Source of the DNA: Podarcis vaucheri
Taxonomy: Eukaryota
Length of the DNA stretch: 64,000 bases
Assembly (NCBI GenBank): GCA_965113315.1
Contig: OZ220368.1
Direction: 5' to 3' (one strand)
The position numbers and the translations under genes were made by a program. Positions within the stretch are counted from its first letter, which is position 1. Each line of letters starts with the position of its first letter. The notes beneath the pieces were generated by a model, which saw only the letters and a list, made by a program, of their open reading frames with translations, searched no databases and was not told where the DNA came from. Positions 16,301-62,345 of this stretch are shown in pieces.

Positions 16301-19300
16301 GGGTCATTGCTATCTCCATAGGAGAGGTTTCTCTTGATCTGGGAGGGCATGGCTGTTTGCCTCGTACTGGCATCAAGGCTGTTGGAGTTGTTGCATGGGG
16401 GACAATCAGCAAGGCTTCTCTCAGGTGATTTACAGGTAGAGTTGTTCGGTTCTTGTGAATCAGAATCTGTATCCTGCTTGGCTGACATGCTGTGAGAGTG
16501 GCTGTTGCTACAAAGAGAAGGAGGGAAAGAGAGAGAATCAGAGGAAGCAGCCCTTGGGGAGGGCCGATTCGTTACTTGGCACACAGACACAACGATCTGC
16601 ATTTGTTCAGGGCACCTGCAGCTGAACTGCGTTTCCTTGCCCCGTTCCTCTCTGCACACAGACACACACGCACACATGCAGACAGACAAAATTATAAGGT
16701 TGCCTGCTCACTGCAATAGGCCATCCAAACAAAAAGACTGGCACACATCTATAATTACATTTCCAGTTCTATTTTTATTTTATTTTTTTATTCCAGGTTT
16801 CCAATGATTCACCTACATTACTCAGCCAACATGCTACTACTGAGAGAGGTTCTGAAACCCATCAATGCTCAGTGATTTGAAGCAGGAAAAAAGAAAGAGG
16901 GAACTAAACTATAAAATGGGAAACTGCAGCTGGACGAGGTTTTTTTTCAAAAAAGCCTGCGTCTTCCACTTACCGCCACTCGTCCTCTACCTGTACCCCG
17001 ATGGACTGGAATTTGGTGGCTGATGGAGGGGGCTCCTCTTTTGCCACTGGCTGAAGGCAGTCAACCTTATTAACAAAAAGATACAAACAAAAAAAACAAA
17101 AACACAAAAACTTGCTGCTAGAATTCACATTTGAAGGAAGGAGGCATGCACGCACGCAAACACACACACATGCACTGGTCATGCAGACACCACACATCAA
17201 AAGGCAGCACATTTTCTTTTCTTCCTTTTTCGCTATGGAGATGGGGAGAGGAAGAGGGAGGGAAACGAGGCTGCTGGCACCATAAACCAGGCCAGTGCCA
17301 TCCTATCTAAAGCTAATTTCAAGGCTGTTGCCATTTGCAGTAGATTTTTGTTTAGTCAGGGATTTTTAACTGAATAGTTATGCATCTGTGATGTGAAATT
17401 TTAAACTATTTTTAATTTTTAAGATTTTTTTCTTATACTTTCCTGATGAAATGATCCTAGAGGAAACTTTAGAAGCACTGGGATGGGGCAAAAGAGAACT
17501 CTGAATAGGAATATTGGCTTTATTACACAGTTATTTGTTTATTCATACCCTGCCTTCTTCCCTGACGGGGCTCAAGGCAGTTTATGGATAAAAACAAGAA
17601 CCACTAATGTTCTTGTATAGACGCCAGGTGAACTTGCTATTAGGAAGAAGGCACAAAGATGCCATATTTATCCTATCCTTCTGCTGCATATTATTTAGAC
17701 GGTTTTAAGTGGCTGGAGTATAATAAAGGAAAGGTTTTAATATTTTGATATTATACTTACAGCTGCTCTTAAAAGGACATTTTAAAGATAGCATTTCCCC
17801 ATCTATTCACCAAGTATTTGGGAATGGGATGGGGAAAAACAAACAACCCAGAGGGAACACAAGTTATTGCTTGCATAAGGAAGAATCAGTGTCAAGGTAG
17901 TACTCAGAACTGATGTAGGCCTCAGAAATGCAACAATTTATAGCTCCGTTTAAAGAGCTTTTGGTGAAGGCGAAGTGACTGCATCAAAGCTCCCAGCAGG
18001 CAAAGCAATGCAAATAAAGTGTGAAAAAGACAGTATAGCACAGGCTGGTGTTATGCCTTGTAGGCGGAGATAACTTCCTAGCTTCAAAGATGCCAGCAGC
18101 TTTTAGCCAATATGAATTTGCATAACCTTTGGCTATCTAAACCCAACACAGTTTTCCTCTAGAGCGCATATTTGTGCCAGTGCACTTCTAGGAGCACAAA
18201 ACTATTCCCATGTGTACTGTAAATAGGCAGAGGGCGGGGAAAAAGAGGAAAGGAGAGTTGGTACAGCATATCTCAGAGGGATGTGACTGATGCAGGATAG
18301 AGGAAGTACACAGTTTCAAGCTTCCAGTGTGAAATGTGAAGAAAAGGTGCAGGTAACTAATAATAATGGTGGAGTGTTTTACAGAGTGTGGGAAAGAAGC
18401 AGCTTTGCTAGCGCCCTGTTGTAAAGAGCTACACAAGTGCTTCTGCAGTTGTGATACAGCAATTGTACTATTACATAAGCTATTTAAATTATTCTTTAAA
18501 AAGCCAACTAAGTGTTAACATAAAATGGAGTGGGGACATAGGACAGTTCTATTATGTCACAGGCATTATCCAATGGGTGCCTGGGATACCAGTATCTTCA
18601 CAACCAACATCTCAGTATCTTCACAACAGAAGCACTAACTTGTCTTTCTGCTGCTAAATTTGGTGAGATTTCATTGATTTGTGGAGTTGGAAGGGCCCCT
18701 GTGGATCATCTAGCCTAACCCTCTGCAATGCAGCAATATGCAGCTGTCCCGTACAGGGACTGAACCTGTGTTTTCATTCACTGTTGTTTCATGCTTGCGC
18801 TTTAATATTTGCTTTTTTTATTTTAACACTATTGCTAACCTGCTCTTGAAGGCTCCTTTTAGGTGGATGAAGCAGGGTACAAATGATCTCATGAATAAAT
18901 AAGCCTGGAGGTAATGTGCCTGGATCCTTTGCAACAAGTGAACAACTGTATGCTTTCTCTGCTTTAAGAAGCATCTACTCTACAGAAAACGTATTTTAAA
19001 AAGGAGAATACTCTTTCCTCCTGTAATGAGACATGCACAAACTGTGTTTGCAGCCTCTGCTTATAAACGTTTCCATTTACCCTGGACATTTCTAGCATGT
19101 TGCTGGCCACTGTGTAATTCTGCCAGATCTGTTTTATTTGTATTTTTTGCTGTGTAAGATTTCATATTTGTATCTTGTTGTACACTGCTATAGTTGGGGG
19201 TTTTTTTATTAAGCAGTTGATAAATATTCTGAATAAATAAGTTGGGTAACCTAGAAATACTCATTGTTTGAAGACCAACACACAAAAGGTTTTGTGCAGT

Positions 19301-22300
19301 AAAGAACATGTATTTGTTGAAGTTAATCTGTTCCTGCTAACAACAATTGGATTTGCACTCAGGTACTTTCTTACTTGGGTGAGCACAAGTCTTTGTATCA
19401 GCATCGGAAGCAACTGCAAAGCTTCCAGTAAGGAAGGAATGCATAGCTGTTCTGGAAATCTGACAGCAGAAGGCAGAACATTACTTATTATTTAAATGTT
19501 CCACAAATTAGCTTTCTTTTCTGCATCACGTACAGCAGTGCATGCATTCCTGACCTTTAACAATGCCATTAGATTCCCTGTGAATTTACAGGAAATGCAG
19601 GAACCAAAGAATCATTATTTGACAGAAAGCCAATGAAAATGTATGTTTAAGTACTTAGTATGCCACTTCCACAATATTTGAACTTGCATGTGTTTTTGCA
19701 GAATTCTGCAGTCAGAACATCTGCCATGCAAAAGTCGAAATCTTACTGACCAACAGCCAAGGTTTACTACACTGTGTGTGGCATATAGGAAATTGATTTT
19801 TCTTAATAAGGTAAACTTCTCTTGATTTAGAACTGAGTCGATTCAATTGCACAATGCACGTCTTAGGATAGGGCTGAACCCTGTGATTCTTTAGCATGTT
19901 TGCCCTGTCAGCACCTCTCTTTTATGGGCTTCAACAAGTGGACTCGTGGTGCTACCAATACGTGGGGTTATCAAAGAAGAATTTTCCTACAGGCCTGTTC
20001 GCTATATATGCCTTAATTAATTCCTTCTCAAGTGCCCCTGGACTTTTATAAAGTCAAAGTTCAGCAGAGGCACACCAAGCGGGCACAGATGCCAGAGCAG
20101 TGAAACAAGGATGCACATGTAAAAATGGTTACATTAAAAACATCTTCTAGTGCTAATGAGAACAAACAATTCCATACTTGTATTCCTATAGATGACAGCT
20201 TCCTTTTGGGGATATTCTCCACCTTTGGCTCCTCACTTGTCAGGGTCCCCTTGTCGCTCTTCAAGGTTGCATTTTTCTGGGGTAACTCGGGAGGCTCCCT
20301 GGCAGGAGGCACAATGCTCCCTCTTGTCACGCTGGGTGGTCTGGTGCTGTCTAAGCTATCCGAGGAATTGCTCAGTCCCGACTGGCTGTTGACCTCGCTC
20401 TTGTGGTCCTGGTTGTCCAGGTAGTTGTCTTGTGCCGATTCGGTGCTGCTCTGCACGGTGACAGAGATGAACGGCTTGGAGGTGGTCCGAGGTGGGACTG
20501 GTGGCGGTGTCTTTTTATAGCCCACTAGGCATGCCGAACCTGCGACAGCGGCAGCGAGAAAGTGTGGAGGGAGAGAAGGGAAGCAGAAGATGGAAGAGAA
20601 AGCAGCAAAAACCCAGTGAGTTGAGAGGAAAGGCAAATTGGTCACAATGTTTAGAGAAGCTAACAAGCATAGATGCAGAATAGGCCAGCCTATGCACGGA
20701 GCAGCCCAAAGCACATTAATAGCCAGCACTACCCTGCTGTGAAATTCAAGAGGAACACCATAACACAGACTGGAAGATAATGGAAAAAGTGAGGAAGAAC
20801 CCTCCAAAAAGCTATAAAGCAAGCCACACTTGAAAGGGGCTACACAGTAGTGGGGTGGAAGCCTGCAATTTTGCTTTATATATAAGGTCCTGATAAAACC
20901 ACCTCTTGGTGTTTGAACCCATCAGTGGAAAGTTTCAGTATCTTGACCAACCTGGTACTTGGACCTAGAAAATGAGAAATGCCACAGAAAGATGCTGTGA
21001 GACACCAGCCATGCTCACTTTTGTTGAAAAACAATATTTTTGAGAAATAAAGCTCCAGGCTTACTAATAGCCACTTAAATTCTGGAACTAGAACAACGGG
21101 GCATTCCACAACTTTCTTGATGTGGAACTTAAACTTCATATAATAAACTTGCTCTATAGTTTCAGTAAATAACAAAGCATTTTGTAGCAGCTTAAAGACA
21201 AAAGAGCCTAATTGTGTGAGTGGAATGACTTCCATTTACTCAATGGGACTTTCCTCCCTCTCCTCCCTCTTGCATGCCCCATGACCTCCTCAAATCTGCT
21301 CCAGAGGGCTGAGGGAACCTCTAAAACAGATTTAGGGGGCACATGGGTGAAGAGAGGGTGTGAACCTTCCATTGTGCAAGGAGAAACCCTTTCTGTGATG
21401 GAAAGCTCACCCCAGAGCTACAATGAATACAAATCGAATCCATTTTGATGAGGCCCAAGCTTTTGTGGGCTAGAGTCAACTTCGTCAGGTGCCAGCTTTC
21501 TTTAGCAGTAACTATAGAATCTCTGGTATAGACATCTGATGAAGTGGAATTATAGTTCTTGAAAGCTTATACTTTAATAAAATTCCTAGTTTGAAGGTGT
21601 CACAATAATTCATTTTTTTCTATAAAAAGGCAGCTCCTGTCAGAAAGTGATCTCACAAATAAGATGGACTTATAAATAAATAAATAAATAAAGCCGTTGA
21701 CACATCCATATTCTACCAATTTTACATGGACCTGGATCTAAGCTAACTGAAAAGTGATGCACATGTGCTGAAATTTGAGAGCTTAGTGCATACTTGTGGA
21801 TGGGTGTCGCTGCAAGAGCTTATAAGGTGGATTCCAACTTCCTTTGACAACAACTACAGAATAGTTGGCATATAAAGTTAACCTAACAATAAAAGTCTTT
21901 ACTCCTATCTAGGGACTATATTAAAATTACCTATATATTTTAAGCATGAAAACCTGTTTTTATTGTAAACCAGCTTCTTTAATTTTAATATTTTATGGTT
22001 TCAAATATGTATTTTGTATATTTTAAACAAGCTATGTGTATTTGAAATTATTTTAATCTTACTTTGTAAGTCAGCTCAAGCATTTTATATAGAAAAATGT
22101 AGGATAAGCTACTGTTTTGCTTGTTTACTTCACAACTCTTCAGCCACTCAGTGGCCAACTCATTATGCATAATTATGTCCGAAGGCAGCTAACCTATGGT
22201 TTTTTTTTGTTGCTGACTTGTTTCAATAAGCCACAGTTAAGATTAACCATAGTTTTTCCAGCTTCAGACGTAAGGCTAAACTATGGTTAGATGAAAAGAG

Positions 22301-31300: not shown

Positions 31301-34300
31301 AGAATTTGTTATTTTTAAAGTAGTGCTGGATGAGCTGTTTTCGGAACTTTATTATTCTCTTGGTTATTTTTTTCTGATTTTAGCTTTTTTCATTTTATGT
31401 AATTGCTGATTTGCTTTAAGGCATCTTTTTGTATAAAGCAACTAATACAATAAATAATAATTATCCTTGCTTCAGACATGCAGAAAGAAACCTTCTAATA
31501 CTATAGAATGTTTTGAAACAGTCATAGACCAGCATTGTTTTGCAGTAAATCTCCCTTTCTCCCTGTCTCTCTGTTTTTTAACTACAGGCCTCAACAATGT
31601 TAAGAGCATCATTAGTTCCTGTGTAAGTAATTTTCTTTTAAATTTGTTATTCTTTTTTTAAAAAAGCATAATTTGGGCAGTAACCTGAAATGCACTGAGA
31701 AGTCAAAGCTGAAATGGAGACTCCTTTCATTCATCTGACCCTCTTGGAAGTGAGCAGGGCTGTCTTAAGCATATGCAGTGCCAGGGTGCAAAGATCCGCC
31801 CACTGCCCCCCCCAGTTGCCCACTCCCAGGCGTGCAGGAGGTTGGAGCTGGCCAGCCGCCCCCGAACTTGCGGTGCAGAGCCTGTTGCAGCGCTCTGACC
31901 AACGAACGGGCTCTTCCCCGGACTCAACTCTCAGGCCCCAGACTCTCGGCCTGGCGCCCCTGAGAACCTGGCGCCTGAGTGCCCCATACCTATTGGTAAG
32001 ACGGCCCTGGAAGTGAGTGTACTCCACAAACTTGACATGAGCCAACAGTGTGACGCAGCAGCCAAAAAAGCCAATGCAATTCTGGGCCGCATCAATAGGA
32101 GTATAGCATCTAGATCAAGGGAAGTAATAGTGCCACTGTATTCTGCTCTGGACGCGGGTGGCGCTGTGGGCTAAAGCCTCAACGCCTAGGGCTTGCCGAT
32201 CGAAAGGTCGGCGGTTCGAATCCCCACGGCGGGGTGCGCTCCCGCTGTTCGGTCCCAGCGCCTGCCCACCTAGCAGTTCGAAAGCACCCCCGGGTGCAAG
32301 TAGATAAATAGGTACCGCTTACCAGCGGGAAGGTAAACGGCGTTCCGTGTGCGGCTCTGGCTCGCCAGAGCAGCGATGTCATGCTGGCCACGTGACCCGG
32401 AAGTGTCCCCGGACAGCGCTGGCCCCCGGCCAATAAATGTGAGATGGGCGCACAAACCCCACAGTCTGTCAAGAATGGCCCGTTCGGGCAGGGGTACCTT
32501 TACCTTTACCTTTTATTCTGCTCTGGTCAGACCTCACCTGGAGTACTGTGTCCAGTTCTGGGCACCACAATTCAAGAAGGACACTGACAAACTGGAACGT
32601 GTCCAAAGGAGGGCAACCAAAATGGTCAAAGGTCTGGAAACGATGCCTTATGAGGAACGGCTAAGGGAGCTGGGCATGTTTAGCCTGGAGAAGAGGAGGT
32701 TAAGGGGTGATATGATAGCCATGTTCAAATATATAAAAGGATGTCACATAGAGGAGGGAGAAAGGTTGTTTTCTGCTGCTCCAGAGAAGCGGACACGGAG
32801 CAATGGGTCCAAACTATAAGAAAGAAGATTCCACCTAAACATTAGGAAGAACTTCCTGACAGTAAGAGCTGTTTGACAGTGGAATTTGCTGCCAAGGAGT
32901 GTGGTGGAGTCTCCTACTTTGGAGGTCTTTAAGCAGAGGCTTGACAACCATATGTCAGGAGTACTCTGATGGTGTTTCCTGCTTGGCAGGGGGTTGGACT
33001 CGATGGCCCTTGTGGTCTCTTCCAACTCTATGATTCTATGATTCTATGAAATGCAGCAAATGTTCAGCCCCCTACTCCATTCCCAATGACACAAAGATAC
33101 TGAAAGCTTGAGTTGAGCAGTCTCCAGCAAAAATTTACTATGTGAGCCAGACATGTTAGAAATGTGCAATTTAAAGCAACACATATCTGGGTAGGAAATA
33201 TGAATGTCAGATTCTGATTGCAGAGACACATTTTTCCACTACCCAGCATTATTCTAAGCATTCTACACTGGACAACAGAACATGAAAGGGAGGTATTTTC
33301 TTGAGTGTTTTATTTGTGCCCCAGGAAAAGTTTTCATATATTTTTTAAATAACAAGGTTTAATGTACAATCCAAGTTTCAACTAACAAAAGACAAGCATC
33401 AGATAAAAGCCTTTCCCAAGCATACCTAAGACTATGACTATATCCCAAATGGCAACAAGCCAAATCTTTTTACAGCCCAATTTCTCCTTTACATGAGACT
33501 ACTACAAAACGTTTCCCTAGATTCAAAACATTAAGACTCTCTGCTTCAAAGTTTCAGACAGGAGAATCTTACAGACGTTCTGCCAAGTAATTAGAAATGC
33601 TTTACATATGTGTCTATGGAAGATGCTCAAACATGTTTAGTGCACTTCCAGTCAAAGCAACAAACTCATTTGCACAATGCACAAGCCTGAGCTACAGCTG
33701 TTTTTGAAGATATAACACTAAACAGCAAAAGGCTGGCAGTAAGCAAACGCTAACAAATGTTTCTACTGCCTCAGTCAATTTAGGGGATCCAGCTAAGTAG
33801 GAAATTAGACTGAAAGGTCATTTCCTCAATGTGACATTCCTGAGACTATTATGTGTCTACTTTTTTCATTCCAATGGTCGAGTCAGATCCTCCCCCCTTC
33901 CTTTTCTGGTAATGGGCTTTCATCCTGCCAGTATGAATTTGGAGTCTGTTCCTTGAGTTACTAATTTTTTAGACTTTCATAAAGAGCAAGTAGCTTCTAA
34001 GAAGTTTTGCCACCACCGCCATTTAACCTTCAACATAAAAGGAGCTTTTAAATCCAGAGTGAATCAAGCAATACCACTGCCTCAAACATTCTCAAACATT
34101 AAGTCAGAAAGGCTAAACTAGTGCCTACAGTTATTTACAAATCTTGTTTGCAGAGGCATATACATAGCAAAAAAGAACAAAGCATTGTAGTTAACTTCAG
34201 AATGAACAAAGAACTTGCTGCAAACCATTTTGAAAGCCAAAACGACCTGTTTCTTCACGTGTAAACGTTACAATTTCTGAGAGTAGCTCCCTCTTTTCTC

Positions 34301-37300
34301 ATTTAGTTAAGAAAACTTAGACAAAACAGGTTTATTTTCAATATTCATATAATCACAGAATTGTAGTATTGCAAGGGACCCAAAGGGAGCTCAACAGCTT
34401 TCAGAATGCTAGTCTGGTGATTTATTTATCCTCCACCACTGCAGCTTTCCTTTTGGAACTATAAACTATCAAGACATCTTTCTAAATGTCTGTGCATTTC
34501 CACACAAAGCTATCAAACCTTGCTCTTGTACTCCAAAATAAAACACAAAAGAAGGTTTTTTCTTAACCTGAACATACAGGCACACAACACAAAGCAAAAC
34601 AAAAAGAGGCAATGTATAGGATAGGTCTGCCTCAAGACTCAGCTTGATACATGGATAGTTAAGAAACTCTGAAGATAGCACCACAAATCTGTAGCTATTG
34701 AAAATGTAGGCTCACCTAAACTTGGAACTTACCAGTGTCACTCGGGATGAGAAACTAGCAAGAAAGCAACAGAAAACCTCAGCCCTATAAACAGCTACAT
34801 TGCTATCTCCAAGGAGACCATCAGCAACATAATAATGAGACTACAGTGACCAACAGCTGTGATGTATCCTTTATTTTCTTTCTAAAAAGAAGAAGAAGAA
34901 AGGAGATGGCTATTTGCTTCTTGCCAGTGACTTCCCTTCCTCTTCCCACCCCATGCACACTGAAAATTATCTTCCAGTCACCTAGCTACAGAAATAAATG
35001 TAGACACCACCACCCCAAAATCAGAAATAGGAATTGTACTTCATCCAGCACCTTCCACAAAGAAAAGTACATGAATGTTTCTTTTGAAACAAGTTATCAC
35101 ACTTAGCTATACATAGGAGCAGAGTGGTTCATTTCCAAAATGGCTTTACTTAATATCATATCAACCATTTTAAAGATTTGTTGCCAAATGCTTTTTCAGC
35201 CAGGCAACAGCATATCACAAGGGTTTGCAAGCCGTGGCTTTTATGCCAAGAGCTGTTCCTCCAAGACAATACCTTCCTTCCACCCATTTAAGTGCCGTCT
35301 TATGTTCTGTGTGACACAACACTATCTAAATGTGGCTTTACTAACCTGGTGCCTGCCATATGCTTTGAACTACAACTCTTACAGCACAGCTGAGGCTGAT
35401 AAGAGTTGTAGTCCAAAACACATGGAAGGCACCGGGTTGGCAAAGACTGATCTGAATGCTAACAGATGTTTCTTGGCATTAAGATACAACCTGTTGTGCA
35501 GGAATCAAACTCTGAGCCTGGTTATACCATGGCACAGTAGTCAGAGCCCAAACATTCCGTTTCTGGCACAATTCATAGATCACTTGAAGATTCTATTAAT
35601 AGTTTAGACAAGAATGTTATGCTTGCAGAAAACCAACATCCCAAATAACTTGACTTTTAAACATTCAGTACAAAAAGCTCCTGGGAGATACCAACTGCTT
35701 CCATACAGGAATCTCTCCCTCTGTTTATGGATATAATGGGGGTGGGGGTGGTTAGAGGCACTAAAATATTGCCAGTTTTCACAACTGTTAAGAATGGCAC
35801 TTATTAAATGCAAATGAGAGATACTTTTTATGGATACACCCTTAAATACTGTATACAAATCTAAACAGTTACTGACTGGATCATTCCTTTTTCCAAAATA
35901 CTACTTTTCAGTACATGTGTACTTAATAAATATAAAGAAGTGAACAGGAGATGGGTGAAGTAGAGAGACACATCTTGTTAACTAAAACTTGTATCTCCAG
36001 GAGAGTTTGAAAGATGCATTAGGAAAAACATCAAATTTGTTTTCTTGGGCATGTGCCTGCAGATTACAGACATGCACTTTGAACAGTTTTCTAGACTCTT
36101 CCCTGTAGTCACCTAAAGAATTAAACACAGAGGAATGTAACATGATAAAGTCACTAAGCAGCTTGTGAAAAGCGACTGAAAGACAAAATACTGCCAAGCA
36201 TACTTTTGGAAACACAGGATATTTGGAATTCAAAAGACAAGAGGAAATATGTTGTTTTAGGGCTGGTGGAATGAGCACCATTTCACTTGGGCTTTCCAAT
36301 TCTTGCGGGTTTCAGAATGACATAAAACTGCTGAAATCCCTTGAAGTGTCTTTGTTCCCAGCTACAACTATATGCTATCTCTTGGCCAACCAAATGGTTG
36401 GTACATTCCAAGAAATACAAACTGGGTTCCAGATGGCTGTTGCTTAGCAGCAGCCCACATGCTTAGTTGCTCAGGGAACAGGTTCCTTGCATTCTCATTA
36501 GACAGCTGCCTACTGAAACTGCTACGTAGTCCTGTCTGGGAAGATTTCTCATACTCAGCTACAAGCTGAGACAAGGATTTCAGTTAGAGCTACAGAATAT
36601 GAATACAGCAAGTTAAAAAAAGGGCTCCAAAGCAATCATCTGACCTCAAAATGGTTTTAAAGCTTGGACATGCATCTTATTTCATCTTACAAAGCAAAAT
36701 GGAACAACGTTGCCACCAACATCTATTAAACACTCCAGACTGGAGAGTGTGTGATACAATTTGCCTGTAACAACGCATTATTCATCCAAACAAAAAACCA
36801 AAATAGCAACATGTTTGCCTGGAGCTATAAGCACTGATGATCAAAATGTTTTCAAAATATGGGAGCATCACCATGAGGAGACTAGGAAGACAAAGCACTC
36901 CTAGGATTATTTGGCATCAATATTTGCTAGCTTGCATCATATATGATATTTACAATTTTCAGTGCAACATAACTGTGAAATGTTTGATATCCAATGAAGG
37001 ACAACAGTGTTGAAAACAACTTTTTTTTCATTCCAGACTGATCCTCTAATGCATGCAGATGCAGGATGAAAGATAGACAACAGGACTTTGACTAGAGCCT
37101 CCTTCATAGAGGTGGTAACATAAATGCTTTCTGAGCACAAAAGGGCAACAGCATAGAGTACTGGACACAGTTCACAGACAACTTAAACACCAGACAGGAC
37201 TGATTCAGTGTATTACTCACCCATAGTATTACTTGGTTAAATCAAAAACCCTAGAATTCCTTTTATTTTCTGTCATACATATGAGATATAGGGTTAATAC

Positions 37301-40300
37301 CTTTAAAATTATCTTAACAATGATTTCCATAATGGGTCTTTAAACCAAGTTACTCAGTATTTGTTCAAAAACCTTTATTTGCATAAAATACCCTCAGTTC
37401 ATCAACAGCAGCATCTGAGTTTTTCGCATTGGTGTCCAATTAAGCACCCCATACTTAGAATTACGTGTCAAGTTTCCATGTCCCATTACACTACTGAGGA
37501 TAACACAACTGGATACTAGGAAACCAGGCTTACAGATTTAAGACGCACAGCGAGGAGAAAGGAAAACACTGCAATTTGATCTTGGATGCCTTCATGCAGT
37601 TTCCTTACCAACTAAAGTTTTCATGAAAGTTAACTTTAGGCGACAACGCTACCCACAGTTACATGGGAGTAAGCCTCATTGAATTTAAATAGGAGTTACC
37701 TCCAGGTATATAATGCATTAGATTGTAGATGTAATCAATAAGAAGAACTCCAAAAGTGCTTTGTAGTCTTCTGCTTTTAGAGCAAATATTGAAAAATTTA
37801 TATTGCTGCTTGGTGCATTCAGTGGGTTTCTGTCCAGCCTTCAGTACAAACATTGTTCCCTTTCTCCAACAACCTAGTGTATGCCCACTGCATGTTTGGA
37901 GGTGCATGTCTCCCCTCTACATTTTACATACTGACCACAGCAAATGCTGGTGGACACACAATGTCCATTACAGAAGCGTAAAACTAATGGAAACAAGTTA
38001 TTTGGAACTACACTGGATACAACCCAAAGTTTCCAAATATAGAAAAAGTGCAGAGATAGTCTATGCCTAGCCTGAAAATGATAGTATTATTTCTAATGGA
38101 CAGTGCTTACGACTAAGCGCCAGTCAAGTGCCCAATGGATTGAGAGCCTGAAATTGCAGAAAGAGGTATGTCTTACCTTTTAAGCATCAAGCAATAGGAA
38201 AAAACTGTACACTTACTTGCGATGCAACTAATCCTACCATCACACTGAATGACATCCAGCAGATTTTCAAAATATATTCAACTGGAAGTAATACTTATGA
38301 GAGTTCTTCATGCAAGAGAAACACATCAAAGAGCTTTGCCAGAAAAATAGCATTGCAAGGTCCTTGAGAATGAAAATGAAACCCATTTGTCCACTAATGT
38401 TACATAGCATTTGTTCATTTTGAGAATGCAAACAAATTAAAAATACAATCTCATCCAAGGGAAGACAAGTTAGAATTGAAGAGTCTTGAGCTATGGATTC
38501 TTTCATAGTGTGGGAAGGCAGAGGTAGGCATGATTCATGTAAAGGGCTTTTTAATCAGTTCCCACTCTGGATGGTTTTTAGAAACAGCATTCTTTTAAAA
38601 ATAAAAAGAATAAGCAGGAGTTTCTTCATGTTATTATTAGGGAAGCCCATCAAAAGCGATTTCCTTTTGTTTGGGGCTTGCTTCCTGACTCACCTCTGAT
38701 CCTTGTTTGTGAGAAGTGCTAAGAGGTTGGGAACCCCAGATTAGATCAAGACCACATGGTGCAGGCTTTTAAAAAACCCTTCTCTCCTGTGCCATTTTCC
38801 TTATCTAACTTGTTCTCCCTCTTGAAGCAAAGGCACATGTTCCTCGCCCCACCCCAGGCAAATGCTAGCATGGGAGCAGCAACTTATATTGTGAAAATAC
38901 AAGATAGATTGATTTAAAACCTTGCCAGTACTACAGCCTCAATCGAATGGGAATGGGGGCTTCCCCATGGCTGCATTTTAACTCAAAACCACAGGAGAAG
39001 TTGTTGATAAATGGCAACTATACTATCTCTTAATTTTCCTAGTATGCGGATACTGTTTGTTATTGTAACTTCTTTTTTTCTATTTATAATTTGTGTTTAG
39101 AAAATTCAATAAATGTGTTTGTGGAGGGAAGCACAGAGGAAATCTGATCATGGATCTCCCACTGCCTTGTGTAGTTTGGTCTTCACAACGCCTTTTCTTC
39201 TTATTAAAAATGATATGAACCAATATTATTTAATAATCTTTTGAACATATGCCCATGTCACACAATTTGGAATGCGGAGATTTCCATGTTAGACTGGAAT
39301 AACAAGAATGTAAAGTGATGACAGCATCAAAGTAAAATTGCTCTAAGCTCCTATGTATGCATGCGCCCCAACTATGCTAGAATGTTTTTGAAGTTGGTTC
39401 CCAGCCAAAATGTGCCAAATTCAAGTTCAAACTAGCTGAGAGGGGAAAAACAGAGTGGTGTGATGTATGCATCACTTTGCTAAGGCACAATACCTGTTAT
39501 TCTTAAGGAGGAGGTAAAGTAACACCCTGGACCCAGGGTATTTGACAGCTACTGTCTAGTTGCCGATACACCCTTTTGGGAGATAGTGACTGAGAGGGTA
39601 GTGACAACCCAACCCAAGCACTTGGAAGAAACCAATTATCTGGACTCATTTCACTCTGAGTTCACACCTGGTTTTGGAAGTGAATCAGCATTGGTTACCC
39701 TGACAGGGACATGGTAGTGCAACCCTGGCATTTTGCTTGAGCTCTCAGTAGCTTTTGATAACGTAGTCACTGTATCATGCTAGACTTGCTCAGAGGGTTG
39801 GAAGTAGGAAACACTGTGTTACAGTGGTTCTGCTCCTACTTTTAGGGTTGGTATCAGAGTAGCACTGGATGCTTGTACCTTGGCGGCTCAGCTATGGAGT
39901 AAAACAGAGTCCCATATCATCTTCAGTGCTGTTCAGCGTCCATATGAAACTGCTAGAAGCCGTCATTAGAGGATCTGAAGCACAACAACATCATTATAGT
40001 GATAATACTCAGCTTGATTTCTCCATCTGAATCAGGCATGGCCATACAAGTTCTGGATCGGTGTCTGGATGTGGATTGGTGTTTGGGCACAGCAATGGGC
40101 TAGATAAGGGTCAATAACCTGACGTTGAATGCTGGCAAGGGTTCTGAAGGAGTAGGTATGTAGTCTGGGGGTGCTCCAGGAACTATTTTTGACTTGGAAA
40201 GCCCAAGTGGCTGTAGTGGATAAAAGCATCTTTTACCAGCTTAGTGAACTATGCATACACAACCTCAAGACTTGATTCCAATTTGCTAATGGGCCAGGTT

Positions 40301-43300
40301 TAAGGTTTGGTATCAACCTACAAAGCCATAAATAATTTGGGACTAGGAATCCAAAGGAACGCCTTCTCCTGTACAGACCTTCCTGGTCATTAGGGCCATC
40401 TGCTGAGATCTTTATGGTTATGTGGAAGCTCATCTTACAGCAACCAGGAAGAGGTTTTTTTTTCCTGTGCATTGACAGTGCATGCTGAAACTATATGTCT
40501 TTACTGAAGGCTTTGCTGGCTATTGACAGCAGTCATTTGTCATAATTTTTATGTTATATTTTGAACTGCCTACCAAAGCTGTTAAGTTTATTTTGCTGTT
40601 ATTGTATTTTAATGGATTTTATTGTAAGCTGCCATGAGATGTTTTTATGATATGTGGTATGCAAATAGATTAATGGATGCAAGGTTAGAAAATGGGGAAT
40701 GTCCTGGTGTCAGCTTCTTGGGCTCTTCATCAGATCCCCCCCCCACACACATACAGAAGTGCAGGAAGACACCTGGTCATATCAGAGACTTTAACTCCCA
40801 AGACACTCCTGCAGGGACCCTGGGAAGCCAGCTGTGGATGTTATACAATCCATGACATCTTCCAACCCTTCTGTGACCTATATGGATGAGAAAACCAGCA
40901 CAGGCTGAAGAATCTGGTACATGCAGGGTGTATAGATTTGATGCACTGCACCAGTGTCACAGACCCCCAAGACAAACACGGATGCAGTTTATTTAAATTC
41001 CTTCTACCTCTCTAATAAAAGGGTATTAATAGGCCAATTATTCCCTATAACTCACTTTTCTAGCTTCGTTACCCAAGATTGAAAAAATGAATAAGCCAGT
41101 TTTTACAACCACACTAGCTCATCCTTTACGACATGCAGCAAGTCAAATCACATTAGCGTCTGTGACCTCATCACATTACACAGGTCTTGGCAGAGAGTCC
41201 AATTCATCATGTGAGTAAACATGACGGCTGCAGACTCTGAGATACTTATACAAGGATTGTTGAAAGGAAGTGAATCGGAAGTGCTTCTACCGTGTCCTAC
41301 GCTCTTCAACAAGTGAAAATGAAAACTTGGAAGAGCTTAGCAAGTCTGCTACTAGTCTGTACAGAGGCCAAAGTCAATCATGTATCAAATGCTGCCACTG
41401 GAACTCAGCCTAACAGATATTTAAGACAGTGCACAAACAAATGTTTGTTAACAGAGCTTCAGTCAATAAACAGCAGCTGAAGGTTTTTGAGCTTCTGCCA
41501 CCTTCAGTAAGCATAGCTGCAAAAAAGAGGACATCTAATATTTGCCAAAGTGTGTAAGGCCTCCACCCAGCCCAAAAGTGTGTAAGTGCCTCCACCCAGC
41601 GCAAATTCCAGAGTTTGGGAAGAGAACTGCAACTTGGCTAGATACCATATTTAATTCCATTGAACCCACTGAACCATTTCTGCAATTTTGCAAAACCAGT
41701 CTAAAATGAGAAAAAGCTTAGATGCAGAACCAGACACCTCCTGTTCTACACATTCAATGATACCACAAGTTTGTGACATGACATCACTAACTGTTTCTGT
41801 AGCAACTGTTTCCGACAGAAATGAATCAGTCAAACAGGGGGTGGCCAATTAGAGAGCAGTAGAACAGGCTTTATAGGCACACAAAGACTTTGTAACTGAC
41901 AAAAATAGGAAAGCAAATTATAGAACGTACAAATAACTTAATGAGCTCAATCTAATGGGTTTCAGGAATGCCTGCTATATTTAGATCTGCCCAACTGCAT
42001 CTTAAAAAGCAAAACAAAAACAGTGTTCCATAATGGAAATGGTAAAAGCTTTAAAATACANNNNNNNNNNNNNNNNNNNNNNNNNNNNNNNNNNNNNNNN
42101 NNNNNNNNNNNNNNNNNNNNNNNNNNNNNNNNNNNNNNNNNNNNNNNNNNNNNNNNNNNNNNNNNNNNNNNNNNNNNNNNNNNNNNNNNNCCTTTGTGGG
42201 GGGAAATCCCCTGGCTAGGAGAGCAAGAAACAACCTCCTGCTTGGCAGGGGGTTGGACTCGATGGCCCTTGTGGTCTCTTCCAACTCTATGATTCTATGA
42301 TTCTATGATTCCTTTTCTCTGAATTCTGATTTCAAAGAATTTTTTTAAATTAAAAACTACATACTTCCAAAATTCGTTTCCTTGGGGTTTTGGGGTGAGG
42401 AGGGAAGGGAACAATGCCAATATATTAATCAGTACTGTTCTATGCCAAGTGAGCAAATAGCAGGTCCAAGCATTTCAAAGCATGAGAATAGAAATTAAAG
42501 TAGTATTTTCTTGTGCACAAGAGTTGCCTGGCACAGTGTCCTCTTTACAGCTACAGGCTGGGACCTACAAGGCAGAGAAAAAGCCACAGCAGTAGAACAG
42601 TAGGATGCTCCACGGGATTGGAGAAGGGCTGAGTGGCAGAAGACGAATGTGCTGCTCAGATGAGCTGATGATGAGCCAGGCATAGGCCCCTAAATCTGGA
42701 TTCTGATATGCAGCTCTTAAGCTTAAGAATCTGGGGAATCACAACAAAAATCAACCCGTAATAAAATACCCAACAAGAATACGATCCCCAAGATATACTA
42801 CTGAAATAGTTTTGAGGAAGGCAGAATAAAGAGGCAGACTGAACCAATGGGCTGCACTATCGTAACTTATACCACACTGACTCTTCTCAAATCCACAAAC
42901 TCTGTCTTGCTCTGTCTTTAGTAGATGAGATTGCTTATACTACTCTTGTGTTCCATGGACACATGCAGGTGAGCAAAGCGTTTTTGAGAATGGTAATGTC
43001 CTTAAAAGCAACAACACAACAGACTTCAATAGTACTGCAGCACCTCAAAAGTGCCACCAATGAAGGCTTCTGATAAAATACTAAAGTCTTCTAAAGCTGA
43101 GAAACACCATGCAAATCTTATTTTATAATAAGTGTGTGTATTGAATGAGAGAGTACACCCTCAAGAACCCAAGATCCAGTAGAGAAAAGACAGAAACAGG
43201 ACTATGCTCCTGTTTAGTTTTAGTAGCTCTAGCCAAAAGCTATACCTCACAACAAGTAATTAGGATTGTTAAGACCTCAGGGTGGAGTAGCAACTTTGCA

Positions 43301-46300
43301 GTTGCAAAATTAAGTGGCGCTGCACAGGGCTGGGCAAGGAAAAAACCCATTTCATGTATTGGCTATAAAGGACATACTTTGCAGCTAAAATTCAAGTTCA
43401 TACAACGCTAATTTCAGATTGTCTGGAAGTTTAGCTCACATAATTGTAGGCTCTCACTTGTTCAGTTCTCAAGAGCTCTGGACTACAAGGCAGACTTATT
43501 TCAACAGCATCAAACATACCTGAAAGTATCTGCAGGAAAGTGTTATGGGTATGAGAAATCCCATTAGGAATAGTGTTGGTCTACATAGGAAATTTATTTT
43601 TAGTTATCACAACCTAAACTTTGGAGACAACATCCTGTAGTACAGAAGTTTCACAGTGCAAGGGGGAGCAGTTAAGGCAGTGTATAAAAGTAACAGAAGA
43701 AAAGCTGGAGCAAATTAATGCAAAAGGTACAGTGTTAATGCTCCTTTTATGAGCCTGTGACTTTTTTGTCCTATCCAATGATGAGAGGGAAGAAAGAACT
43801 GAAGGAATACAGAAACACTTACCTTATTTAATGATCTGTTCACAGACACTCAATCAAAGGGAGTGTAGCTAGAAATAGAAACTGCAGAAGAAAGCAGCCT
43901 CCAAACCTGAGATTGACAAAAATTACCTAAAAGCAAACTCAGCCGTCATAAAGGACTAGCCCAGTTCTGTCTTTGGACTCAAAAATATACCTCAAAGCTT
44001 GTGCTAATGAATAATGAGACACTACAGTGGTGCCTTGCAAGACGAAAAGAATTCGTTCCGCGAGTCTTTTCGTCTTGCAATGTTTTTCGTCTTGCGAAGC
44101 ACGGTCCGTCGCAACTGCGCCTCTTCAAGCGGATTTTTTAAAAAAGCGCAAGACGTTATTTTCACCTTGCGAAGCAAGCCCATAGGGAAATTCGTCTAGC
44201 GAAGCAACGCAAAAATGGAAAACCCTTTCGTCTAGCGAGTTTTTCGTCTTGCGAGGCATTCGTCTTGCGGGGCACCACTGTACTGCATGCAGTTATTTCA
44301 CTAGAAATCATGACTTCAGTATAAAGAACCAGACAGTTTGAACCACATTTGAGATAACATGAAATTCAATAGGCATTAAATACAAAGTATATTAACAACT
44401 GACAGCACTGTGGTCAGTAAACACCCATGATGAACTGAGTTCAAAGGAGTTTTATCCCCATGCTCTACATGATGAATTCAAGAAGCACATAGCATCCTAT
44501 TCTGTAATGCATCCTGTAATGGAACCTAAACAAATATAACTGAAATAGCCACGTATTCTTCCTTGCTCACCCCTGCTTTTGCTTTTTGCTCCAGGGGCAG
44601 GGACCTGTCCTCTGACTTGCTGTCAAGTGCCATGTATGCCAAAGGAGGTAAGACAGGGCTGCAATCTGAAGTACACTTAATTGAAAGTGCACCCCACTGA
44701 ACACAGGAGCAAACACAAAGTGTTGGAATGAGTAAAATACTGCTGCATAGTTATATGCAACTGAAATGCCTGCCAATGCGACCTTCCACTGACACCTATA
44801 CGAAAGAAAAGCTATATATTTATGTAAGTAAATTCTGTATTTACAAACTGCAAGGGGGGGGGGAGAGCTCATGTAAAAGGCAAACTTAGATGGGATACAA
44901 CTCAGAAGCAGCTAAAATACTGACAGTTACCGGTACCTAAATACCAAGCTGGCAAGACTGCTTGAAGCACCTAGTTTAAAGATGGGGACACAGGATTAAA
45001 GAACACAAAAATCTTCTTGAAATAATATAGAGCGACTGTAGGTTGAAGTTTGACTCATAATGTACATGCAACATATGTTTGGCAGGTAATCACTAACCAG
45101 TAGCATGAGTCAACTTTCCCTTTAAATTGTCTCAGTATCATAAGACTGGAAATGATGAAGGAGTATGCTAGAGGGATGGAGTGTGATTTTAGCCCAGTTT
45201 TTGCTAGCCTAGTACCCTTTAGATGTTTTAGACTACAGCTCCCATCAACCCCAGCCAGCACATGCACTACTAATACTCTAGAGATGAAGCAGATGATTGC
45301 TTTCACTTTTTTGCTTTCAGTTTTTGACATAGCCACAACCCTTGGGAGTCAAGCTCCTTTCACTCCTCCTAAGCTACCACACTTATTAAGAACACACGGT
45401 TAGCTCACCGGTAATTACATTGCAACACAGAGACACCATTAAAACACACCCTCTCCAAAACATTAAAAGCCTGAAAACGGCAAACTAGGAAAGTGACTTT
45501 ACAGGTTTCTGAAGAATGAAAACAGAATTCTACATGCAATCCTTTAGGGCTTAAAATGACATGTCAAAACTGGCAATTGTAAAATATTTTCACTTTTTTA
45601 AAAAAGGCAGTCCTATATTGTAAAATAAGATCTCCCCCCCCCCCATCTTATAGGGGCTGTGGTTACAGTTTAAAGGTATCCTAGTAACAGCAGCAGCGAC
45701 CAAGAAATGCCATTACTCTCCTGTGGTTTACCCCGGAAGTTTGTTTTTATTAATTATAATTATATACGCTCCCATCAATACACGTCCCTTGGGAGCCGAT
45801 CACCAAAATTAAACCCAATTAAAAATCAAAAGTAGGAGAGATAGATAGATGTGAGAGAGAAAACAAACCCCAGCATACCCAAACGACCTCATTTCCCCTT
45901 CCACAAAGGCAGCCCAAAGCAGTCCCGATGCAACTACAGCGGCGACTTCCAACTACCGGGTGGCGGAATTTAAAAGGCCCCACTCCCAAATTCCTCTCAC
46001 AACCCGCGTGCTTCTTCTTACCCTCGTGGGATTGAAGCCCAGAGTGGCGCTTCCCGGCTGAGAAGTTTCCATGGAGAGAGAGAGAGAGGGGAGAGGAGGG
46101 CAGGGTGGCCTTGCCTGGCTGCCCGCCGGCCCACGGGTGGCGAAGAGAGGCAGGGCAGGCGCCGCACCGCCAGAGGCAGGGGAGAAACTTTCCTTCGCCC
46201 TCCTCTGTTGAGTCAGACGCGCCGCCTCACCCCGAGGAGGGACAGTGGGAGGCGCTGCTCACAAGCGCCCTTCCTCCCCCCATTCACCTCCGCCGGCCTC

Positions 46301-49300
46301 CACGCTCGCTTCCCCGACGCGCCCCGCCCGGGCCCTGCCTCCCTCAGCCGGCGCCGAGGCGCTACTACGCCGGGGAGGAGAGGCTTCTTCCTCGCCCGGC
46401 CTGGCCTGGCTGGAAGCGGCACCGGGGCCGGCCGCGAGCCCTGCGTTGGCAAGGCGGGAAGCCCCGTTTCTCCGCAGGACACAAACGCCTACCTCGCCGC
46501 CGCTGCTTCGCGGCCTTGCCGTAAAGCCGCCCCTCAGCCCCTCCGAGTCCGGGGCGGGCGGGATCCGGGGCGAGGCCTGTGATGGCGAGACGCGGGTTCG
46601 AGGCGCCTCGCGGTTGGGGCCCAGCCCGGAGAGCAGCTTCACGCTTCCGACCCACGAGTGGGTGGGGAAGCGCTCAGGGACTCCACGGAGGGTTCCCCCC
46701 CCCCGGCCGCCTCTTCGGAGTGCAGTGGGAACGCTGCCATTCAGGCCTTTAATTACCCAATCTATGGCCTTTAAAACTGTGTAGGGGAGGGCGGTTACTG
46801 TTTTTGTTTGTTGCTAAGGTTTGCATTTTCGTTTAATTATATTGTCTACCGCCCTGTAATCCTCAGAGGAAGGCTAGTATGGGAATTTCAGGATTCTGTC
46901 CCAGCAGAATCTGTTTCACTGCTGGTGAGAAAGAAGGTGGGGGTCAGCATCTATTGGTAGGACTCTGGGCAATCTGCAGTTGAGATCATCAAGGATTTCT
47001 GACTTCCATTTTTTAAAAAACTGTTTTTGCTCTCCAAATAGGCTACCAGAATGAAGAAAACGGGGGGGGGGGGGGAGAGAGAGAGAGACCAGGAATGGCG
47101 TTTTGCTTCTGAAAATGAATTCATGGGCTGAAATGTATATGCTCAAAAAGTCCTTGATTGTTTTGACCTTGTTTCCAGCTGACTGGCCTCAAGGTGGCAA
47201 GGGGAGGGGGGGTGTTGATACACCCCTGGGTTAGGGGGTAGCCCATTTTTGGCAGACCTCCTCCTAGTGGTTTCTAGGATTTCCCAAAAATCCTGAGCCA
47301 GGTGGACCTTGGTTGATCCTGCATTTAAGATGCATTTACTGCTTTAATATGCTCATTGTTTGCTACCCTGGGCTTCTTTGGAAGGGTGGGATATAAGTTA
47401 AATAATAATAATACTATGACTTACATGTTTAAAACCTAATCTACACATGCAGAATGAGATGTTAAATTAGAATGCCACCACAGGCTTTGAACACTCCCAT
47501 GCAAAAAACACAAATCCACCAACACAAGCTAGCATATCATGGAGAATGGACTGTAGTCTCACCCACTTCTCACCGTGTTAGTTCTCTCTCAGAAAGCTCT
47601 TAGCACACGTTGTGTGCTGTACTGGAAACCAAGACCAAGCAAGAAAGCATACACAGGATAATTTAGCACAGATTAATTATGCTGCAACAAGCAAGCGATT
47701 CCAACTAAGTCCTATTGCTTTCTGGCAGAGCAATTCAAACCCCATCTGGGCAAAGGCAAGGTGTGATGAAGCAGCAATCACCACTGCAACTGCAGCCTTG
47801 TTCATTGTTTACACCTGCTAGGACAGAAGGTGGAAAGACAGGCAGAGTGATCACGCCTGATGCCATCAGATTATGCCAGTTGGAATGGCTCCAGTGGATT
47901 GTAGTCTGCTCAGTCCTTCCCTGCTTCCACAACACCCTATTTGAGAGCTTTCCAAGTGCTCTGCTGCACTTTCAGTAGGCAGCACAGAGTGCTCCAGGCC
48001 AGCAGACTGACACAAGTCAGGAGACTGACACCAGCTTTTCTAGTCTTCGCACCATCCAGCACCCACCTCCCAGTGCAGCAGATCAGGAGTTTGGACTGTA
48101 ACCAAAGTTTGTCATGCAACTGGTGGTGCAAGAGGTGTAGTTTTAAGTACATAGTGCATGTCAACCCACTCCTGTCATACGATAAAGTGACAAAAAGACT
48201 TTTGAGAACATAGTTACTATTTCTTCACGACTGACAATATCCTGAACCTCACCCCTATTTGAATTTTGACACTTTTAGTATTTTAAGTTTGCTTTATTAC
48301 ATGTGTACCCTGCCTTTCCTTCAAGGTACTCAGGGTAGTGTATGGGAGCTTATTCCATTTTATCATCATCTGCAAGGAAGGTGTTATTTATTTGATAGAT
48401 TTATATTGTGCCCTTTCTCTAAAATGGAGCATAGGCAGCTTACAGCAATAATAAATTACCATAATCAAAAGAAAATACTCAAATAAAAACAATGAACATC
48501 TGTGATAAAACTGTAGAACCTCACCACAAATACTACTTCAACATCTGAATGCCTGGACAAGTTCAACTCCTTTTACTTATTTATTTTTTGCAGTGGCTGA
48601 ATATCAAATGCCATTTGGGAGGGAATTTCAGAGGTGAAGGGCCACCACTAAAGTAGCCCTGCCTTATGTCACTTGTCCTTTCAAATAACAGTCAGTTACT
48701 CAAAGCCACCCAAGAGAGGACAGTTTTCTCAGATGTCTTGGTCCAAGTCCAACATAAACCATACAGATTCCCTAATGAACTGAATAGGCCAAGTAGGCCA
48801 TGGTTAATCCTTTGTAGTGCTGCTATGCAGTCCAAGCAAGCTGGTATTTTTAATTCCAAAAGTAAGTAGTAAGGCATTTGCAAACCTCAATTTTGAAAGT
48901 ATTTGATAGAATAGGTTGACAAGCAGAAGCACAGCTGCTACATTCTTGTTCACTGCTGTCATTAGGGCACCTTATGGAAACCTAGAATCTTTAAAAAGCA
49001 CTTGTTTCATAAGGACTTTAAACAAGCTAGTAATAAATCAAAACAGGGTGTTAAATTTTGACTACAGGGATGTTCCTACAGCCTTAAAAGGACTTGAGGC
49101 AGGACCATGACACACATTTACATACAAGTTTGCTAATGCAAATGTATAGTGCAAATTAGGCTGACTCAGAGGAAAAGCTGCCCTGTAAGTAAATTCAAAT
49201 AAGAAATAAAGGGGAGACATGGGGATGGATGGACACCAGATCTAGGGTCTAGTACATAAGATCCAGGGCCCAGCCCCCCCCCCATACTCCCTCCCAACAT

Positions 49301-61149: not shown

Positions 61150-62345
61150 CCTTGAAAGCGAAGAGAAGGAATCGCACTACGGCAGAAGGGCAGAGCCGGG
61201 TTTCGCCCTGTTCACTGAGAAAAAACACACGACAACAACAACAGCGAGCAGCTCCCGGGCGAAGAAGGAGTGGACGACGGGCGAGAGACCAGAGCCGGGG
61301 CGGGCCTGCGGAGATCCGGGCCGCGGGCAGCGGCTGCTGGGCGACGATGGAACCGGCGCTGGAAAAAGACACAAAGTAACCGAGCCGCGCAAGCGAGCTT
61401 TGGCCGCGCACACTCACCCTCCTCCCTCACTCAGCCAGCCCCATCCGCTCCCGTTATGTACTTCCAAGGGGAGGAGCGTCGGGGGGCTGCGAAAGCCCCG
61501 GGTTCGCCACGCCCACCTTCGCCGGGCAGCGCCCGGAGACCGGAGGAGGCAGGCCCCGAAGGCGGCCAAGGGCTGCGGGCGGCGCGGCGCAAGGGCTGAG
61601 AAGACCGAGGAGGCCGGGCTGGAGGAGGAGGAGGAAGACACCCAGCCGCTCCCGACGGCGGGGGAAGGAAGCCTGGCCGGGGCTGCCAATGGCAGGAGAG
61701 GGGAGGGCGCTGCCGCGCCGCCCGGAGCCTCGTCGGCTGTGGCGAGGCGCGCAGGACGAGCCAGCCGCTCCTTGCAGCTCACGAGCGCCCTCCGCGAAAC
61801 CAGTTCCAGCTAGTATTCCGCACATGCTCACAAGGCGCCCATTCGCGCGCTGCCTGTCCCCCCCCCTTTTTTTGCGGGGAGGAGTATGTGTGTGTTGGGG
61901 GGGCGGAGAGATTTGGAGAGCGCGTGAAGGAGGTGGGGGCCGCGCGAGAGGCTCCTTCCCCCGCCGCGGCGGTAGGTGTGGCGCCCGAGTGGGCGCAGTT
62001 CTTGGCTCCCACCGGCGCCCCGCTACACGCGCGCGCCAGCTTCGCGAGGCTTCCTTCCCGCGGGGGCGGGGATGGGCGGGAAGGACGAGCAGATGGGCGA
62101 CAGGTGTGTCTGCGCGCGCGCCCCCGGGGAGGGGAAGGAAGGGGGCGCTTCCTGGCAGCGCGGCGAAGATGCCGGTGGCGGGAAGAATCGGACCGGCGGG
62201 GCGGAGGGAAGAACCACGCGCGGCTCCGAAGCAGCCCTGAAATAGCTCCGGATCTCGCCGAGGGATGCTTTCCATCTTTGGTTGCTTCGAGGACAGGCGC
62301 CCAGGGCAGGCTCCCCCCATCCCAGCTGCAGCTCCCACGCCATTT
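61150..62345 (-). promoter_or_regulatory. CpG island / internal promoter of the DLGAP4 short isoform
   Basis: Abrupt GC- and CpG-rich segment with GC boxes (GGGGCGG near 61900, 62063 and 62198), immediately 5' of the [10 protein letters not shown] exon. Confidence 0.85.

Follow-up and report, generated by a model that had tools for sequence, protein, structure and literature searches.

The window analysed here, a 64,000-nt stretch of the Podarcis vaucheri genome, carries exons of the synapse-scaffold gene DLGAP4 on its minus strand. A CpG island at 46001–47000 (not assigned to a strand; GC 0.70/0.58, CpG observed/expected 0.78/0.75), likely an internal DLGAP4 promoter, surrounds an exon with an ATG at 46072–46070, 51 nt of coding sequence (17 codons) running down to 46022 on the minus strand, and the phase-0 donor AGG/GTAAGA. 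The Kozak context of this ATG has T at −3 and G at +4. Two bulk RNA runs of unstated tissue, X23 and X24, about 12% of each of which was examined, cover the exon with 33 and 32 reads, respectively. First mates lie on the plus strand only, which in usual stranded libraries places the RNA on the minus strand, the strand of the gene. Depth is absent below 45988 in the bulk runs, and 21 + 21 loose ends (X23 + X24) fall at 46020.

The 46-kb CpG-island exon is a real, transcribed and spliced DLGAP4 exon. Its CpG-island setting, its transcription on the gene's strand and its splicing to downstream DLGAP4 exons (20539 in X24, 20964 in X23) are those of an alternative first exon. A preliminary description of this DNA had proposed an ATG exon with these boundaries and splice motifs, and the splicing of 46022 in two bulk runs bears it out. 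On the upstream side, X23 and X24 contain no loose ends and depth is only 1–4 above 46200; at that depth no clustered read starts were seen over the island in the bulk runs, so the transcription start site was not located. We give this alternative 5' exon, which is likely a first exon, as 46022–46563 (minus strand), where 46563 is the furthest bin with bulk-run cover rather than a defined 5' end. At several sites the X23 and X24 reads do not match the window, and they may therefore come from a related species. All three of the read variants listed within the 51 coding nucleotides fall at first or second codon positions, and all three, read off the genetic code by hand, alter the residue.

Analysis of the loose ends reveals the splice partners of 46022. 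In X24, the majority partner is the shared coding exon at 20178–20539 (minus strand), joined directly at 20539 and entered in phase 1 (consensus of 21 reads, agreement 0.73). In X23, the majority partner is a longer form of the exon that begins at 20964 (21 reads, agreement 0.87), which reads past the donor at 20952 and is given here as 20933–20964 (minus strand), its 3' end not being fixed. All 21 + 21 spliced reads end at 46020, which fits partners that start with GT, as those at 20539 and 20964 do. Computed by coordinate joining, the direct splice yields a 21-codon ORF that stops at TAG 20527–20525, in agreement with the earlier claim that this junction is out of frame with an early stop, and the long 20964 form yields a 26-codon ORF that stops at TGA 20937–20935. 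In the majority splice forms, the predicted role of the ATG and 17 codons at 46072–46022 is thus to begin an upstream ORF of 21 or 26 codons. In the direct form, three short ORFs are computed before the next in-frame ATG at 16488 (16486–16488, minus strand), the start of a 284-aa isoform that contains the GKAP domain and is represented by 284-aa RefSeq models in many squamates. The consensus does not resolve minority forms, which make up a fifth to nearly half of the loose-end reads and could contain much of an in-frame form.

Such an in-frame form is already annotated. The 46-kb exon opens the RefSeq models XP_077785349.1 (Podarcis muralis isoform X4) and XP_034980213.1 (Zootoca vivipara isoform X7), of 463 aa each, which share the ATG exon and the downstream exons with the window gene. 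The 46-kb alternative 5' exon is therefore not new, and its N-terminus, presented in the preliminary description as unfamiliar from mammals, was in the databases through another connector. This connector is the 13-nt exon 20952–20964 (minus strand; VQVP plus one base), not the 22-nt segment discussed below; we note that these are predicted models, whereas out-of-frame forms dominate the reads here. The 13-nt exon is the sole minus-strand match in the window of the back-translated pattern, and it is also found in model P0129. Joining the 46022 donor, the 13-nt exon and the shared exon gives 463 aa, of which 460/463 are identical to XP_077785349.1 (P0127) and 457/463 to XP_034980213.1 (P0137). 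The shared exon itself is identical at 120/120 aa to a Zootoca DLGAP4 model, and the GKAP homology domain PF03359 is present in P0127 (E 1.5e-152) and P0190 (E 2.7e-133).

The peptide encoded by the 46-kb exon changes far faster than the shared protein. Relative to Zootoca, 3/17 residues differ, against 3/441 in the rest of the protein (Fisher P=0.0008), and relative to P. muralis 2/17 differ, against 1/441 (P=0.004); purifying selection on the 17-codon peptide is thus not apparent from these sequence comparisons. For comparison, the conserved 5' exon of isoform b (coding part 61024–61054, minus strand, phase 1) gives a joined form identical at 452/452 positions to model P0151, and the window shares its peptide unchanged with 19 models (61 models counted, chosen by their first six residues). 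Rapid change is common at extreme N-termini, functional ones included. A homologous 46-kb N-terminus is found in 3/262 proteins that have the start of the shared exon (P0127, P0137 and P0168). A Rhineura model contains a homologous exon, identical at 10/17 residues, with a different connector. In models from Podarcis, Zootoca and Rhineura alike, both the ATG and the frame from it to the donor are preserved, possibly a sign of selection on the start codon. The N-terminus is absent from the RefSeq numbered series of P. raffonei (X1–X5) and L. agilis (X1–X6), in both of which 284-aa models are present, and searches of cluster representatives with residues 1–40 of P0137 (9 matches) or 1–45 of P0127 (16 matches) revealed no further carriers.

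These observations bear on a further possibility, that selection maintains the 13-nt exon in lacertids as a frame adaptor; the 46-kb promoter would then make a functional isoform of 463 aa, and the donor at 61517 one of 549 aa. The connector is common to the P. muralis and Z. vivipara models, RefSeq lacertid models use it to frame two different phase-0 donors (46022 and 61517), and its acceptor is used in X23. However, most X23 reads continue past its donor into the stop, the upstream peptide is poorly conserved, and none of the N-termini listed from outside lacertids carried the connector. Gene-model pipelines, moreover, favour any in-frame path. We consider a selected adaptor unlikely.

The preliminary description had instead connected the 46-kb exon through a 22-nt microexon candidate at 34733–34754 (minus strand), and its account of the segment's sequence holds on recomputation. 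The segment has a TAG acceptor, a pyrimidine tract, a CTG/GTAAGT donor and UGC at −6 and −14, and the three-piece join 46022 / 34754–34733 / 20539 encodes 466 aa by coordinate script. That a 3n+1 microexon restores the frame is correct in principle, but the RefSeq models do so via 20952–20964 and not via 34733–34754.

In several respects the segment resembles the neural microexons regulated by SRRM3/4, for which two reports describe UGC between branch point and AG together with a strong donor (bioRxiv 10.1101/2024.09.17.613571, PMC12871342). At 22 nt between AG and GT, it lies within the 3–27 nt given for neural microexons in one of them (PMC12871342), its UGC is similarly placed, and its donor matches 6/7 consensus positions by simple count. 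The UGC placement discriminates weakly, as a UGC stands at −14 of the shared exon too and 14/42 decoys on the minus strand of the flanking DNA carry one. The segment differs from this class in that it is not frame-preserving, being 3n+1 and in frame solely behind a phase-0 donor, in that its inclusion was not seen, and in that it has no conserved peptide. It also lacks an extended region between branch point and AG: the AG-free zone of its acceptor spans 23 nt, the shortest among the eight acceptors measured, and the nearest yUnAy adenosine, a branch point guessed from the motif alone, lies at −34, against a median branch-point distance of 45–47 nt for neural microexons (PMC12871342).

How often such a segment arises by chance was estimated with cut-offs set post hoc at its own score (donor 6/7, 14/17 pyrimidines). 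At these cut-offs, it is the sole match in the 25.5-kb intron, with one match on the antisense strand, a mean of 0.13 matches in 30 shuffles, and one match on one strand and none on the other in 200 kb of flanking DNA. The splice sites of the 22-nt segment, the best-scoring microexon-like element of the intron, thus beat most decoys and amount to about a 1-in-8 event per intron. With looser cut-offs the intron contains 10 candidates, 6/10 of them frame-restoring; consequently, the frame match does not single out the 22-nt segment. An apparent sense-strand surplus of frame-restoring decoys (6/10 against about 1/5 in shuffles) was gone at a still looser cut-off (8/21 sense, 7/16 antisense).

Evidence of use was not found. 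None of the 42 spliced reads listed from X23 and X24 (tissue unstated) ends at 46022, where reads joined to the 22-nt segment would end. By summed depth, X23 could contain at most one read of this kind, and X24 no read, which places the 95% upper bound on inclusion between 7% (0/42) and 11% (1/43). In X23, depth is 0 in the bin 34631–35107 that holds the segment, although the same alignment placed 21-letter pieces elsewhere, and the encoded peptide occurs in 0/298 proteins compared. The contig runs X1, X3 and X4, whose status as RNA is guessed, show patchy unspliced cover; their listings, crowded by repeats, gave no informative joint among the best 15 of the 17 joints and the best 24 of the 484 loose-end rows; the sole contig listed across the segment (X3, 34356–35229) is unspliced. 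Separately, a joint at 38476–45592 in X23 (26 reads) was rejected: its two pieces, each of about 21 letters, match by chance around 36 letters that belong to neither side. With no supporting read in either bulk run, its peptide absent from the proteins compared and a different connector in RefSeq, the segment is not supported as the connector of the 46-kb exon, and it is likely an unused decoy. The literature consulted yielded no paper on the lizard exon, nor any on a DLGAP4 microexon in this position; a Dlgap4 exon switch is reported in mouse (PMC7815907).

Two explanations would nonetheless give the segment a role. If SRRM3/4 included the 22-nt exon in neurons, RNA from the 46-kb promoter would yield the 466-aa protein. 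The strong donor, pyrimidine tract, UGC positions and correct frame of the segment speak for such a switch, as does the rarity of segments that score as well (about 0.13 per 25.5 kb), and the runs examined include none known as brain. Neuron-only inclusion would have escaped them, since X23 and X24 are of unstated tissue and were read to about 12%, and the single-cell runs X21 and X22, with just 1 and 3 reads, are uninformative. Against it stand the spliced reads, the zero depth in X23, the missing peptide, the RefSeq connector and the short AG-free zone, and inclusion would break isoforms a and b, where entry in phase 1 meets an in-exon stop (TGA 34740–34738). We therefore regard a neural switch as very unlikely. 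Its most elaborate version, in which the exon is an SRRM3/4-dependent two-way switch of lizard neurons that frames the 46-kb RNA (466 aa) while stopping isoforms a and b, and so sets with promoter choice which DLGAP4 scaffold is made, seems to us highly improbable. The same stop allows the segment to be a real, rare poison microexon of the phase-1 isoforms a and b, independent of the 46-kb ATG. It has good splice sites, the upstream exon of the long isoform ends in phase 1, and decay of such RNA would conceal the segment from both reads and protein models. Given the absence of reads on the segment in X23 and the unspliced state of the sole contig across it, this too is quite unlikely.

Since the majority forms stop after 21 or 26 codons, the 46-kb exon is likely mainly an untranslated leader. 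In sum, we think it probable that transcripts for the known 284-aa isoform use this exon as a leader that carries a short upstream ORF, and that the 22-nt segment is an unused decoy. The 46-kb island gives rise to a transcribed, spliced alternative 5' exon and to majority transcripts with a predicted 21- or 26-codon upstream ORF, and ribosomes may reach the 284-aa start at 16488 by scanning through the weak-context ATG or by reinitiating downstream of it. Alternatively, part of the RNA that contains the 46-kb exon may undergo nonsense-mediated decay. The 13-nt exon may also provide a minor, apparently lineage-specific in-frame form, whose product would be the 463-aa protein of the RefSeq predictions for two lacertid genera. 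The 284-aa lizard model presumably corresponds to human DLGAP4 isoform c. Its ORF, the expected product of the out-of-frame transcripts, resembles human isoforms b and c and the 283–284-aa sauropsid models. Human isoforms b and c are described as short, widely expressed and without the 14-aa repeats that bind DLG/PSD-95 (PMC4222360, PMC5583998).

On the present findings the locus is of limited importance: the alternative 5' exon of this lizard synaptic gene has been annotated before, and the microexon proposed alongside it is without support. If neuron-only inclusion of the 22-nt segment were true, it would be an unusual microexon that opens the frame of one isoform and closes those of two others. 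For annotation, the locus calls for caution, since the in-frame N-termini that combine a phase-0 first exon with a 3n+1 connector vary between species here and most reads seen are out of frame.

The window carries the 3′ part of DLGAP4 from a lacertid lizard on the minus strand; the exon shared by its isoforms (20539-20178) matches a Zootoca model at 120 of 120 residues, and the isoform-b form assembled from the window, whose conserved 5′ exon occupies 61054-61024 (minus strand), is identical to a Podarcis raffonei model (452/452). For this gene, the preliminary description had proposed a further N-terminus, read from a 17-codon ATG exon in a CpG island at 46 kb (46072-46022) and brought into frame with the shared exon by a 22-nt microexon (34754-34733). 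The ATG exon is real, but it is already annotated in RefSeq, with a 13-nt exon as connector instead of the 22-nt piece. Cluster look-ups returned two models of 463 aa each, XP_077785349.1 (P. muralis X4) and XP_034980213.1 (Z. vivipara X7), that open with a homologue of the 46-kb peptide, continue with VQVP, and then enter the shared exon. On the minus strand the VQVP connector matches only 20964-20952; this 13-nt piece, bounded by AG and GT, lies 412 nt ahead of the shared exon, and the window form built through it is identical to the P. muralis model at 460/463 residues and to the Z. vivipara model at 457/463. A third RefSeq lacertid model, P0129, uses the same 13-nt piece behind a phase-0 donor at 61517, while a Rhineura model has a homologue of the 46-kb exon (10/17 identical) with another connector, which resembles the window from 45732 onward (7/20). 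In a partial sample of 298 proteins (best 120 of 2607 matches, at most 15 members per cluster, no named mammal), the shared-exon start occurs in 262, the 46-kb peptide in 3 of these 262, and the peptide of the 22-nt piece, matched as any stretch of five residues, in none of the 298. Neither P. raffonei (X1-X5) nor L. agilis (X1-X6) has a 463- or 466-aa form among its models compared, a set that lacked isoform X5 of P. muralis and several isoforms of Zootoca.

Two bulk RNA runs of unstated tissue, X23 and X24, were read to about 12% each in search of splice partners; their reads carry several differences from the window and possibly derive from a related species. On the 46-kb exon there are 33 and 32 reads, whose first mates lie on the plus strand only, and no coverage extends below 45988. 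Two single-cell runs contributed 1 and 3 reads. Each bulk run shows one row of loose ends, i.e., unplaced read tails, with 21 reads at 46020. The consensus of these tails is the start of the 20539 exon in X24 (agreement 0.73), and in X23 (agreement 0.87) the 20964 acceptor with sequence that continues beyond 20952 as far as 20933 or further; extended past 20952, the 20964 form meets a stop after 26 codons. Most X23 reads from the 46-kb exon enter at 20964 and pass the 13-nt donor (20933-20964, minus strand), and the longer exon has candidate donors after 20903, 20830 and 20715, or may run through to 20539. Since both partners start with GT, their reads end at 46020. Reads continuing onto the 22-nt piece are computed to end at 46022, where neither run has a row (at least 3 reads are needed for one). 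Summed depth allows at most one read onto the 22-nt piece in X23 and none in X24, and the 95% upper bound on its use in the bulk runs is 7% to 11%. Wider placement of X23 reads gave depth 0 in the bin containing it, although pieces of 21 letters found a place elsewhere; the 15 of 17 joints listed include none from 46022 to 34754. Minority forms, whose estimated share of the loose ends is about 22-45% according to their identity, may contain a large part of the in-frame transcripts through the 13-nt exon. The 22-nt piece as connector is without support in X23, X24 or the 298 proteins.

All coordinates and motifs of the proposed path are present in the window: the three pieces join to 466 aa, and the 46-kb exon spliced straight to the shared exon gives an ORF of 21 codons. 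With microexon cut-offs fixed post hoc at its own score, the 22-nt piece is the sole match in the 25.5-kb intron, with 1 match on the antisense strand, an average of 0.13 in 30 shuffles, and 1 and 0 matches on the two strands of 200 kb of flanking DNA; judged by sequence, it looks better than most decoys. Looser cut-offs yield 10 candidate microexons in the intron, 6 of which restore the frame, so that a frame match does not discriminate the 22-nt piece. Four further 3n+1 AG/GT segments on the minus strand (43520-43529, 40119-40143, 34982-34985 and 31685-31694) would likewise restore the frame, have fair splice-site scores and are candidates without sign of use. A 130-nt N stretch (42061-42190) in the intron is unreadable.

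The 22-nt piece had also been proposed as a neural switch regulated by SRRM3/4. Compared with such microexons, as defined in bioRxiv 10.1101/2024.09.17.613571 and PMC12871342, it fits on length, UGC and donor strength, but it does not keep the frame for isoforms a and b. Furthermore, it lacks their extended 3′ region, its AG-free zone of 23 nt being the shortest of 8 acceptors. UGC is found in 74-79% of SRRM3/4 microexons and is not strictly required, according to bioRxiv 10.1101/2024.09.17.613571. The piece is not filed as an SRRM3/4 neural microexon, and a neuron-only role is improbable. Overall, the original observation is confirmed and its interpretation partly supported, with the named 22-nt microexon unsupported.

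About 4.5 kb outside the window (L003:4542 region, minus strand; G000:C25, about 79.067 Mb), the long isoform's final upstream exon ends in phase 1. At this junction, long-isoform models vary by 1-3 residues between species and isoforms, a pattern suggestive of tandem donors or acceptors. In RefSeq, the lacertid models X2/X3 open with the ATG at 61825, inside the isoform-b CpG island, and exit via donor 61462 (phase 1) or 61517 (phase 0, via the 13-nt exon; region 61462-61825, minus strand). The segment 52333-52419 (minus strand) is homologous to the 5′ exon with which Lacerta agilis model X4 (P0134) begins; its 87-nt ATG-to-donor stretch, in phase 0, has a stop in the ATG frame, and the L. 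agilis X4 N-terminus is therefore not kept between the two lizards. The shared-exon acceptor (20540-20640, minus strand) combines a long pyrimidine tract with an AG-free zone that exceeds 98 nt; the zones of seven further acceptors that were measured are far shorter. A 199-codon open frame (2770-3366, plus strand), arranged tail to tail with DLGAP4, resembles the last exon of a homeobox gene, presumably of TGIF2 type; a Pfam search of this frame gave no match. A repeat of about 350 bp occurs in four copies (78-89% alike; 7832-8180, 32150-32508, 62444-62786 and 63095-63438), the last two forming an inverted pair directly upstream of the 61-62-kb CpG island.

The 17 codons of the 46-kb exon hold 3 differences from Zootoca, against 3/441 in the remainder (P=0.0008), and 2 from P. 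muralis, against 1/441 (P=0.004). Three read variants are listed in the 51 nt, at the first position of codon 13 and the second positions of codons 5 and 4; all are residue-changing by the standard code, and the two in X24 yield the residues of the P. muralis X4 model (P0127). In contrast, the window shares an identical isoform-b peptide with 19 models. What counts against a lack of selection on the 46-kb exon is that its ATG, in frame with the donor, is maintained in three genera, and that N-termini may vary yet be functional.

A literature search found no paper on this lizard DLGAP4 exon. Published work mentions first-exon changes in rat Dlgap4 (PMC12953806), a neuronal exon switch that could not be placed on the gene (PMC7815907), and, in the cortex of mice, many Dlgap4 transcripts that retain introns (bioRxiv 10.1101/2020.10.14.339200); Dlgap4 is also listed among promoter-switching genes (PMC5470264).

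In sum, the island is transcribed and the 46022 donor is used, with majority partners that are out of frame. The next in-frame ATG, at 16488, is computed to start a 284-aa ORF, preceded by short ORFs, of which the direct form has 3 and a form in which the 20964 exon continues to 20539 would have 7. The out-of-frame RNAs probably yield this 284-aa protein through reinitiation or leaky scanning, or are partially degraded, and a minority passing through the 13-nt exon may yield a protein of 463 aa. Three variants of human DLGAP4 are annotated, of which b and c are widely expressed and without the 14-aa repeats, according to PMC4222360 and PMC5583998. All lizard forms discussed would also be without these repeats, so that the difference between a 463- or 466-aa form and isoform b would be confined to the first 21-24 residues of the former.
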